Below, piece by piece: positions 9,001-12,000 of a stretch of 15,284 nucleotides of DNA. The stretch is taken from positions 1 through 15,284 of the forward strand of contig JBMFHL010000015.1 of the NCBI GenBank assembly GCA_049976845.1, read 5' to 3'. The position numbers are program-made. The DNA is from Candidatus Micrarchaeia archaeon. GTDB taxonomy: Archaea; Micrarchaeota; Micrarchaeia; Micrarchaeales; CABMGC01. Numbering within the stretch: position 1 is the stretch's first letter; each line of letters starts with the position of its first letter.

Positions 9001-12000
9001 AATACTTGAGCTCCTAACAAGCGATTCAAGCATAATAGATTCAAGAAGCCTCACTCCTTACGACATAGACGAAGTCATAAGCAAAAAGGAAAAATTCGAC
9101 GAGCTTTTCAGCTATGCGACAATGCAATTGGAAGAAGCGCTCGCATCCGCTCTCGCGTCTGTGAAAAGCTACAAGTCGCAGCTGGCGAACATTTATACGA
9201 TAGACTTCAAGAATATAAGGAATGCGGATACTAAATATCCATTGCCAGGCAGGTTTGCATCGAAGCTGCTCTCAAAGCTCGAGGAGCTCAGCGGCAGGCA
9301 ATGCATCCTAATACTTCACTTTTACTCATTCATATCAATAAGGTCAAGCAAGCAAGTTGACATAAACTTGGTTGATGTTGTAAATGAGGCAAAGAAGGCG
9401 TACAGAGTGGTTGAATCAGCTGGAGGGCACAAGAATGCGGCGAGCATAAAGCTAGCCGACGAATATGCAAAAAAAGAAGTGATAAATTCACTTCTAATAA
9501 GATTCGGATGCTCTGTAAAATAGCAACATTGCGCATTACAAAAAGCAGCAGCAAAACAACGATCACTTTGTAATCGTTGCTTCTTTGCTTCTCTAGATTT
9601 TTTACCAGCCGTACGGCTTAGCTTTCTTTATCTCCTTCGGCTCGAAAGCATAGTTGTACAGCGTGTCCTTGTATTCTACTTCCTCTTCCTTGATGCCATT
9701 TTCTTTGGGCTCCACGCCATTCTCCTTGAGCAGTGCAATTATACCATCAAGGCTTATCTTAGGCAATTCATTTTCTGCGCCTTTCTTGTTGTAATACAAC
9801 TCTATGCTCCCCTTTGCAAATGACACCTTTGCTTTTATTATTGCATCGTTGAGCAGCAATCTGTACTGCAATCTTGCAGCGTGAGGTACATCCACAAGCC
9901 CCTTTTTGTCAACACTTATAACCGCATGCACAATCTTTTTGTAAGGTATTACATCCATACTCATGCTTTCACCCCTGCATTGCCCTTGCCATTTACTGGC
10001 AGCGAGAAATAGTCCACGAGCTTGTCATAAGTCCTATGATAATCTTCTGTTGATTCAAGCTCCTTTACATTTCTAATATACTTCTCTTTCTGGTAATCCC
10101 ATTCAGGATGCATCTCCTTCCACTTTGCATTCGGTATGCTGTACTGCCTTTGTATTTTGTCCCTGTAAATCTCAGGAAATACATTGAATGTGCAGAAAGG
10201 CAATATCTCACCATCTGGCATTACATAGTGTATGTCGCATTTCTCAACCCTTGATATATCATATGTATATTCGTCCTGGAAGTGCATCATTCCTAAGAAA
10301 AGCGACTTGACGTGGAATGCTCCCAGGGAGGAAAAGTCATGCTTTAATAGTACAGTAGTTAGCAGCTTAGGAACATTTATGCTCTTCGGCATATTCTTAG
10401 TGTCGACAAATTTCCTTATGCCTGCAACAGTCTTGAGCGCTATCAGCTTTCTTTGCATCTTGCCCTTGCCTTCCATCTCATTTACCGCGCCCTGCAGATG
10501 CTCTATGAGCCCAGGCGCATCTATAAACCGGGTTATTGGTATGACTCTATTGTCATTGTCAAGGAAAAGATACGTTCCTGCGCCGCACGCGAAGTGTATT
10601 GAAAGGTCATATGTAAAATTGCCACTAAGCGCCTCAATAAACTTGCTTATGCCGCCGGTATAAGGAACTGAGAACCAGTCCTCTTTCATTATATTGCCTT
10701 TGGTCTGCTCCTCAATAAGCTTGATTGCCCCAGGTATAGTAATCCTCTGCTTCTCCCTGAGCCTGTCTGGCATGCGCCCCACAAGCGAAACGGGCTGGAA
10801 ATTTACAGCTCTAACAATGTCAATGTTGTTTAACGCAAAGTTTATTATGTTGCCAAGGTCTCCATCGTTCACGGTTCTTATGACAGTGGGCACAAGCACT
10901 ATCCCTGTTTTTGCTTCACGTGCTGCCTTAAGTATGGAAGGAATCTCCCAGTGGTTCTTTGGGTTAGTGCGCTTGCTCACTCCGTCGAAGCTCATATACA
11001 GAGTGCTAGTGCCTGCTTCTCTAAGCTCTTTGAGCAGCTTAGGGTTTGCTCCCAAGTTTATGCCTGTAGTATTGAGTTGTATCTGGTCAAATCCGACCTT
11101 CTTTGCTATTCTCACAATGTCCACTATGTCCTTCCTCATTGTCGGCTCGCCGCCAGTTATCTGCAGCGCATTTGTAGCTATGGGTTTCACATTTCTCAAA
11201 TCTACTAGCATCCTCTCTATCTCGCCAAGGCTGGGCTCGTATATAGGCTCGCCCTCCTTTGCGTAGAAGAAGCAGTACCAGCATGAAAGGTGGCACCTGT
11301 TTGTCACAACTATATTGGCAAGCGCTGTGTGGCTCTTGTGCCTTGAGCAAAGTCCGCAATCAAATGGGCAGTTCTCGCCCAGTGTCGGGTAATTTGGATT
11401 GGTAACCCCCCTCCCGTTGTAAGCATATTTTGACATCCTTTCATACATATCATAATCTTCCCAATACTTCTCTATGGTCCAACCATGCTCTGGGCAGTAT
11501 TTTCTTATCATGACATTGTCATTGTCCCTGTAAATTATCCCGTCTATAATCAATTTGCACGTGGGGCATACTGTCTTTGTCTTGCCCAGCACCGGCAGCT
11601 TCTCTATCTCTTCCATGCTCCTATGATAAGGCTCTAAAATCTTCTTCTCTATTTCTGTAGTTTTTTCTTCCATAGAATCAAACACCCTTCCTAACTCTGG
11701 CCCTAGAAATAGTGCTTTCTAAATTCTTTTTCAGCACATCTGCTATAAACCTTTTGCTGAAAGCATCAGCCTTTGAAGCTATGCTTATCTTAGTTGCGTA
11801 TATCCTTGCTATCCTTCCTCCATTATGCCTTCCTGCATTCGAAACCTGAGGCATCTTGTACAATATCCCGTATTTTGGCGGCCTGCTGCCATACTTTAAG
11901 TGCTTGAAGAGCGCCTTTTCTGCGCCAAGCAACTGTATTGTGCTTGCTGGCATAAGCGCAAGCTTGTTTAATGAACCTGCCCTGCTCAGCAATTCTGCAG

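Follow-up and report, generated by a model that had tools for sequence, protein, structure and literature searches.

Native tetraether synthase and a candidate replacement for the missing lipid backbone enzyme in Micrarchaeales

The tes locus and the ownership of tes

We analysed a window of 15,284 nt, the whole stretch of DNA considered here, from a Candidatus Micrarchaeia archaeon (GCA_049976845.1, contig JBMFHL010000015.1, positions 1-15,284; genome code G000). On its minus strand lies tes (g00531; 9961..11673), encoding a tetraether synthase of the radical SAM type, 570 aa long from its ATG and identified by the model NF045702 and by alignment to PDB 7TOL; a GTG at 11685 is a possible alternative start and would add 4 aa. 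The stop codon of tes overlaps the ATG of g00530 (ATGA), a minus-strand gene (9602..9964) whose 120-aa product has an HMA/ferredoxin-like fold without CxxC, and whose annotation draws on this overlap, synteny, a structure model and a complex score. Upstream of tes, also on the minus strand, is a nop5/Nop-domain gene (11678..12487; PF01798, 186 bits), which marks the contig as Micrarchaeales and stands outside the lipid pathway. A DHH/HAN-like nuclease gene on the plus strand (8141..9523) converges on g00530; its position is retained in many Micrarchaeales loci, and it is mentioned here as context only.

The tes product scores 680 bits against NF045702 (cut-off 450), covering model positions 1-485 of 486, and aligns to 7TOL, the Methanocaldococcus jannaschii enzyme, with an E value of 3.7e-129. 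This alignment places the rubredoxin ligands at C36, C39, C60 and H63, those of the [4Fe-4S]N cluster at C102, C106, C109 and H112, and the radical SAM CX3CX2C motif at 127, 131 and 134. C363, C479 and C494 are present, as are M463 and Y483, the equivalents of Met439 and Tyr459. The ligand list, apart from the C-cluster cysteine numbers, comes from Lloyd 2022 (PMC9433317) and was mapped via 7TOL. The ligands are conserved in 85-94 of 94 Micrarchaeales rows; the Met439 equivalent is invariant in 16 of 16. With all ligands present, the survey's description of g00531 as a full Tes stands. The protein shares all four cofactor sites and both residue equivalents with the known Tes/GDGT-MAS enzymes (MJ0619, PDB 7TOL; Saci_0703; MA_1486; NF045702) and is a further member of that family, Micrarchaeota homologues of which have already been published. 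It differs in falling into a clade specific to its order, in being extended at both the N and the C terminus, and in the translational coupling of its gene to that of an HMA-fold partner. The substrate of Tes is saturated diethers (PMC9433317). Judged by family membership and intact ligands, Tes of G000 would very probably couple such diethers into tetraethers.

Homologues of Tes in Micrarchaeota were listed previously, with the suggestion that DPANN copies might come from the host (Zeng 2022, PMC8941075). One interpretation of that suggestion is that host DNA was binned into the symbiont genomes. Of 121 Micrarchaeales genomes, 108 have a Tes above the NF045702 cut-off, and in several of the remainder the gene is cut by contig ends or frameshifts. 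In a sample of the phylum comprising 251 genomes, Tes is present in 44 of 46 and 61 of 65 genomes of the two main Micrarchaeales families and in only 8 of 139 genomes from other orders, so that the counts of the survey (24 of 24 Micrarchaeales; 2 of 17 in other orders) hold in the larger sample. These tallies take in two unpublished genomes (G027, G070), and no claim depends on either. Identity of Tes inside Micrarchaeales is 63-85%. The closed chromosome of Candidatus Micrarchaeum harzensis A_DKE (NZ_CP060530) carries tes at 73% identity, and frameshifted tes occurs in two single-contig genomes.

The survey's proposal of a tight order-wide clade is borne out by the Tes tree that has now been built: the Micrarchaeales sequences form one clade both in IQ-TREE (LG+C20 quick, 67 rows; SH-aLRT 99) and in FastTree (133 rows), with the third Micrarchaeales family basal within it. 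Nested inside this clade are a few rows that bear the names of other taxa, and these look misbinned or mislabelled. AU tests (LG+G4, 29 rows) rejected a grouping of Micrarchaeales with main-clade Thermoplasmata Tes (p-AU 2.5e-7); a grouping with Ferroplasma-type Tes, defined post hoc from the tree, was not rejected (p 0.163), a point in favour of a host source. The trees and tests cover 133, 67 and 29 of 199 Tes rows, a set without methanogen, Thermococcales, Asgard, Iainarchaeota or Altiarchaeota sequences, and they speak to the clade, not to its root or the direction of donation. Micrarchaeales Tes is only 34-54% identical to Thermoplasmata Tes, its flanking genes are order-specific, and the GC content of tes (0.447) is close to that of the window (0.422). 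The closed chromosome, the presence of the gene in 108 of 121 genomes and its own clade rule out host DNA as the explanation in this order, and we regard it as extremely improbable. By distribution and tree, tes is an inherited gene of the symbiont, with next to no doubt, as the survey had held; with the closed chromosome and the gene order, the same evidence makes it native and near-core in Micrarchaeales.

A predicted partner of Tes

In 29 of 30 Micrarchaeales loci searched with tblastn, g00530 follows tes, and the thirtieth holds a divergent copy; among 80 named loci it follows in 71, and the nine without it comprise four from other phyla, three at contig ends and two real absences. Divergent copies also stand 3' of tes in the third Micrarchaeales family and in one other order. 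The Micrarchaeales-specific gene order described by the survey applies to g00530, whereas nop5 is kept 5' of tes in only part of the loci.

The structure model of g00530 (pLDDT 85) matches HMA/copper-chaperone folds. No Pfam match was obtained and the CxxC expected of an HMA domain is absent; the C-terminal tail PYGY is conserved. Prediction of a Tes-g00530 complex gave a score of 0.90, compared with 0.00 for the best of three controls. The mark applied to such scores is reached by 116 of 157 solved pairs and 2 of 215 mismatched ones, a calibration that is rough here because our own alignments were used. Separate runs share at least 90% of contacts, with a pLDDT of at least 88 for g00530. In the predicted complex, the conserved g00530 helix HAARLQYRLL rests on Tes residues at about 39-43, 101-105 and 499-514, a contact zone that would adjoin the rubredoxin and N-terminal cluster ligands. 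The Tes positions contacted are near-invariant in Micrarchaeales and variable elsewhere, a pattern that shared descent would give as well. PDB sequence searches found no solved counterpart of the complex.

On the strength of this model, g00530 probably binds Tes as a subunit. It would sit on the Tes surface in the region of the rubredoxin and N-terminal [4Fe-4S] sites, where it may shield the cofactors or dock an electron donor. The survey's finding did not include this role for g00530. A possible relative is DUF3213 (PF11491), a gene for which (86 bits against a cut-off of 27) lies directly 3' of tes in two Thermoproteota MAGs; in our scans, this adjacency was confined to the pair and to two near-copies of one member. 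Although g00530 resembles both DUF3213 and HMA domains (PF00403) in its HMA-like fold, it lacks a Pfam match and the CxxC and has the PYGY tail, and hhalign links it to DUF3213 only weakly, with a probability of 5%. Homology between the two is only a lead. We found nothing on DUF3213 in the open-licence literature.

Other lipid genes of the symbiont

The survey also credited this cell with GGGP and DGGGP synthases, CarS and GGR. GGGP synthase (GGGPS), CarS and one GGR of G000 pass curated cut-offs, the GGR only just and at a subfamily cut-off; the DGGGPS-like gene falls short (220 bits against 269), as do a second GGR-like gene and a GGPP-synthase-like gene. CarS was found in 5 of 5 genomes and GGGPS in 246 of the 251 genomes of the phylum sample. 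Searches of G000 (90% complete) with partial queries gave no match to HMG-CoA reductase or IDI-2, and it is therefore likely that isoprenoid precursors are supplied by the host.

A B12-type radical SAM protein, g00498 (C13:13200-14888), had been proposed as a ring synthase (Grs) accompanying Tes. The gene itself is real: it occurs, patchily, in 49 of 121 Micrarchaeales genomes, and its product shares 60% identity with proteins of Picrophilus and Acidiplasma. No curated family matches it above cut-off. It is homologous, as a B12-type radical SAM protein, to two Sulfolobales paralogue types of 489 and 528 aa, which we take to be GrsA and GrsB, but at only 26-30% identity (E about 1e-39 to 1e-54), the references being other Sulfolobales sequences and not the named Saci proteins. 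In the tree, g00498 belongs to a third deep clade (support 100), in which Micrarchaeales are interleaved with acidophilic Thermoplasmata and Nitrososphaeria. Two Thermoplasmata with a gene of this clade possess, in addition, a gene that matches the 528-aa Sulfolobales type at 55% identity. Given its separate clade, its low identity and the closer Grs-type gene in other carriers, the ring-synthase label for g00498 is unsupported.

By the loose homology criterion of a published survey (E values as high as 1e-40 with identity of about 27%; bioRxiv 2022.08.15.504015), g00498 counts as a Grs homologue, and one Micrarchaeia MAG was scored as grs-positive by Blum (10.1101/2022.08.15.504015). The Grs-like family also includes methylases and a desaturase (10.1101/2025.10.20.683597). 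A_DKE has a g00498 homologue at 69% identity, while the lipids of its culture are up to 97% GDGT-0, which argues weakly against ring formation by this protein. Its taxonomic spread is similar to that of the methylase Cgm, and this had led us to guess that it might be Cgm; the guess was not borne out among 47 Sulfolobaceae genomes, where the best match, to sequences other than Saci_1785 itself, reached 7e-49 against the level of 1e-99 used for a Sulfolobaceae orthologue. Searching the supplementary files of PMC11214058 and PMC8941075 for the Picrophilus protein WP_011178130 gave no match, and published lists of Cgm or Grs homologues may already place the g00498 clade. As a relative of GrsA/GrsB and of Cgm, Gmm and Ted, g00498 probably modifies tetraether chains in acidophiles.

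A candidate for the missing backbone step

The absence of G1P dehydrogenase (G1PDH), part of the survey's finding and already published (PMC8975820; PMC5059525), holds for the canonical enzyme throughout the sample. No genome among 251 has an EgsA above the NF002022 cut-off of 413, and an EgsA query gave no match in G000. PF13685 matches occur in 6 of 121 Micrarchaeales genomes, five of them AroB-like and one an Fe-ADH. The sole genome of the 251 with a G1PDH-family match is G177 (AraM-like, 183 bits, below the cut-off of 413). A recent study describes loss of araM before Micrarchaeota and its regain in Norongarragalinales and WAL, and also ascribes araM to some Micrarchaeales (PMC12892359); contrary to the latter, we found none in 112 Micrarchaeales genomes. 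Neither GlpK (0 of 5 genomes) nor GpsA (0 of 101) nor TPI (0 of 5) was found. Lack of TPI and of FBP aldolase/phosphatase has been reported for A_DKE (PMC8975820), leaving no evident internal source of DHAP.

On contig C16, outside the window, an extended SDR oxidoreductase gene (C16:13424-14470, minus strand) lies directly upstream of GGGPS. An orthologue is present in 238 of 251 genomes, almost always as a single copy. The SDR has the features of its class in sequence, model and fold search (Rossmann TGxxGxxG, N, S/T and YxxxK); its N, Y, K and R residues are invariant in 59 of 59 sequences, and it forms its own clade (support 100) apart from generic epimerases. Named matches above 200 bits are from Micrarchaeota or an uncultured archaeon. 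Its best NCBIfam matches, all below cut-off, include the lipid-acting HpnA, OleD and SdmB; among solved structures, nucleotide-sugar epimerases come closest, with 20-25% identity. The SDR is directly upstream of GGGPS in 25 of 25 Micrarchaeales genomes. In other orders, it abuts GGGPS in 20 of 50 genomes and lies within 1.3 kb in four more, over 14 family codes; the unselected part of this set gave 14 of 30, and the 20 further loci were hand-picked, some with the adjacency already known. No fusion of SDR and GGGPS was seen among 11 longer matches. In Undinarchaeota G436, the slot upstream of GGGPS is occupied by egsA itself (518 bits against 413), and its GGGPS retains YLE. The SDR is thus proposed for the same pathway position as EgsA/AraM (NF002022, PF13685) and shares its operon slot, although its predicted fold, a Rossmann extended SDR with YxxxK, is unrelated.

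GGGPS of G000 belongs with group II enzymes (TIGR01769, 180 bits against 162); its best PDB match is the Methanothermobacter thermautotrophicus enzyme (4MM1, E 1e-62), with which it shares Y134. A review describes Y134, Y178 and E180 as strictly conserved determinants of G1P stereospecificity (PMC9385802). In G000, this triad aligns as Y/V/D. The 94 Micrarchaeia rows, two of which may come from a single genome, all have Y134; Y178 is present in 3 and the full triad in 1, and E180 is replaced by D in 93. In contrast to group II enzymes, the Micrarchaeota gene has [ILV]TD[ATV]GSN in place of YLEAGSG and SDR instead of egsA upstream, whereas YLE is kept in 5 of 5 outgroup sequences. G177 is the only genome with YLEAGSG; it has AraM-like genes and lacks the SDR orthologue, while in two genomes of the same family the SDR and the altered motif occur together. 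This contrast concerns one genome, 89% complete, whose GGGPS branches first in the class, and retention of YLE can therefore not be distinguished from reversion.

Together, the SDR in the egsA slot, the altered GGGPS site and the G177 exception suggest that the step has been replaced and its acceptor changed. The lack of an evident internal DHAP source, the sugar epimerases among the closest structures, the missing fusion and the dependence of the G177 contrast on one genome weigh against this. We favour, with moderate confidence, a role of the SDR in the backbone step in place of EgsA. Within that role, we tentatively prefer chemistry in which prenylation comes first, a narrower proposal that is distinctly less secure. 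The acceptor onto which GGGPS, with its rebuilt glycerol site, would transfer the geranylgeranyl group is a keto-triose phosphate, DHAP, which probably comes from the host. Reduction of C2 of the lipid intermediate by the SDR with NAD(P)H would then give GGGP. An analogous C2 reduction is performed by alkyl-DHAP reductase in eukaryotic ether lipids. The eukaryotic acyl/alkyl-DHAP reductases (Ayr1, PexRAP/DHRS7B) are classical SDRs with sn-G3P lipids as products, and reduction of C2 in a lipid-DHAP ether by an SDR would, by analogy, be the chemistry proposed here. DGGGPS, CarS, GGR and then Tes would follow, acting in this genome on isoprenoid precursors that are largely host-derived.

Alternatively, the SDR could be a soluble enzyme that reduces a triose phosphate, either DHAP or D-glyceraldehyde-3-phosphate, to free sn-G1P, with GGGPS still using G1P even though its motif has drifted. 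Reduction of D-glyceraldehyde-3-phosphate yields the sn-1 enantiomer, and this route needs no TPI, the enzyme that is missing. The egsA slot, a distribution complementary to that of G1PDH, and the retention in GGGPS of Y134, an acidic residue and the phosphate loops are all compatible with such a reductase. However, it leaves unexplained the phylum-wide loss of Y178 with the E180D change and the restriction of the canonical motif to the AraM genome, and the SDR resembles enzymes of the 3-beta-HSD type, whose substrates are lipids; we consider it unlikely, though the foremost of the alternatives. Since the changed residues are proposed determinants of stereospecificity, and epimerase chemistry is common in the SDR fold, GGGPS might instead take sn-G3P, or the SDR might epimerise G3P/G1P or C2 of GGGP, giving bacterial or mixed chirality. 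We regard this as improbable, as no source of G3P was found (neither GlpK nor GpsA) and glpA is reported from only a few genomes (PMC12892359).

The survey had proposed an imported backbone. On this model, the symbiont would take up G1P or diether lipids of its host and complete them with its own GGGPS, DGGGPS, CarS, GGR and Tes, and the SDR would be an unrelated sugar epimerase held in place by gene-order inertia. Lipids of the M. harzensis co-culture are the same as those of the host, with up to 97% GDGT-0 (PMC8975820), which fits import and own synthesis equally well. Import also accords with the action of Tes on saturated diethers (PMC9433317), the lack of TPI, GlpK and GpsA, and the match of the SDR fold to epimerases. 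Inside Micrarchaeales, moreover, the downstream neighbour NFACT is as conserved next to GGGPS as the SDR is (20 of 20 loci). In other orders, however, NFACT adjacency disappears (0 of 30), whereas the SDR adjoins GGGPS across the 14 family codes. The SDR is near-universal and single-copy, and an importer of G1P would have no reason to change the residues that recognise it. The SDR in the egsA slot and the altered GGGPS site point instead to a replacement step, making import doubtful, and slightly less probable than the soluble reductase.

Returning to replacement of EgsA by the SDR, we lean, if only a little beyond an even chance, towards the overall view that Micrarchaeales make their own GDGT membrane, or at least complete it themselves, an EgsA-independent backbone step included. 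A broader formulation, that nearly all Micrarchaeota use an undescribed EgsA-independent ether-lipid route in which the SDR sets C2 on the lipid, and that Micrarchaeales add a two-subunit Tes, is possible but more speculative. In the open-licence literature, we did not find the native status of tes, the predicted Tes subunit or the SDR-GGGPS module in print.

Missing G1PDH is used as key evidence for the view that DPANN symbionts are unable to make membranes, and this has been inferred for the ancestor of Micrarchaeota (PMC12892359, in the available parts of which GDGT is not mentioned). If an unrelated enzyme replaced the usual backbone enzyme, these symbionts would build more of their own membrane than assumed, and lack of G1PDH would no longer mean inability to build an archaeal membrane. 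The chirality of the backbone, moreover, defines the lipid divide, and the novel route, if true, would imply two independent enzymatic origins of G1P chirality. With two genes now named as candidates for the missing step, both questions become open to experiment. The predicted small Tes subunit, of which the orphan DUF3213 is a possible relative, may prove relevant to the biochemistry of Tes and to heterologous production of GDGT, the yield of which is low, about 1% of lipids (PMC8941075). With Tes native to the symbiont, the doubt raised by Zeng 2022 is answered, and Micrarchaeales become possible producers of GDGT in their habitats.

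Reading frames around tes

In the window, which carries the tetraether synthase gene tes (9961-11673, minus strand), positions 6270-8103 hold a KaiC-like ATPase gene and, after it, a membrane-anchored ORF of 376 aa that is rich in cysteine and matched no family; both are kept close to tes in several relatives. Two further membrane-anchored ORFs, at 633-1433 (with an N-terminus rich in Q, N and A) and at 5397-6158, had no match in NCBIfam or Pfam. Outside this order, in G141 and G240 (loci L068 and L070), tes has a putative CarS-like gene, so named from sequence likeness, no more than 1.5 kb away. 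Elsewhere, L497:157-2973 encodes a 939-aa Tes, apparently with an intein, and a DUF3213 gene directly follows.

Frameshifts split tes in two well-assembled genomes, G113 (C1:309446-310905; L264) and G041 (C1:264809-266267; L265), and could reflect either sequencing indels or true decay.

Triosephosphate isomerase, the SDR and AroB-like genes

Triosephosphate isomerase was found in none of five genomes, namely G000, which holds the window, and four single-contig relatives, while controls were positive in 14 of 14. The extended-SDR oxidoreductase gene linked to GGGP synthase has a second close copy elsewhere in the genome in G005, G037, G049, G065, G067 and G083. AroB-like sugar-phosphate cyclase genes in three genomes of the order (L062-L064) exceed the PF13685 cut-off and could be mistaken for araM, the G1P dehydrogenase gene.

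Micrarchaeales-type tes under other names and possible transfer of Tes

Micrarchaeales-type tes loci also occur under the record titles Acidiferrales bacterium, bacterium, Marsarchaeota and Methanothrix (L111, L114, L139, L157). These are likely misbinned or mislabelled, which would be the opposite direction to the contamination suspected in print, that DPANN tes are perhaps the host's (Zeng 2022).

Tes of the Ferroplasma, I-plasma and Sysuiplasma type (L079, L080, L083, L194-L201) adjoin Tes from other Micrarchaeia orders in the Tes tree (LG+C20, 67 rows), in a clade that also takes in those of Undinarchaeota and Micrarchaeales. Their grouping with the remaining Thermoplasmata Tes was rejected (p-AU 2.4e-9; LG+G4, 29 rows, the group having been named after the tree was seen). 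One possible interpretation is that this type of tes was transferred between symbionts and acidophile hosts.
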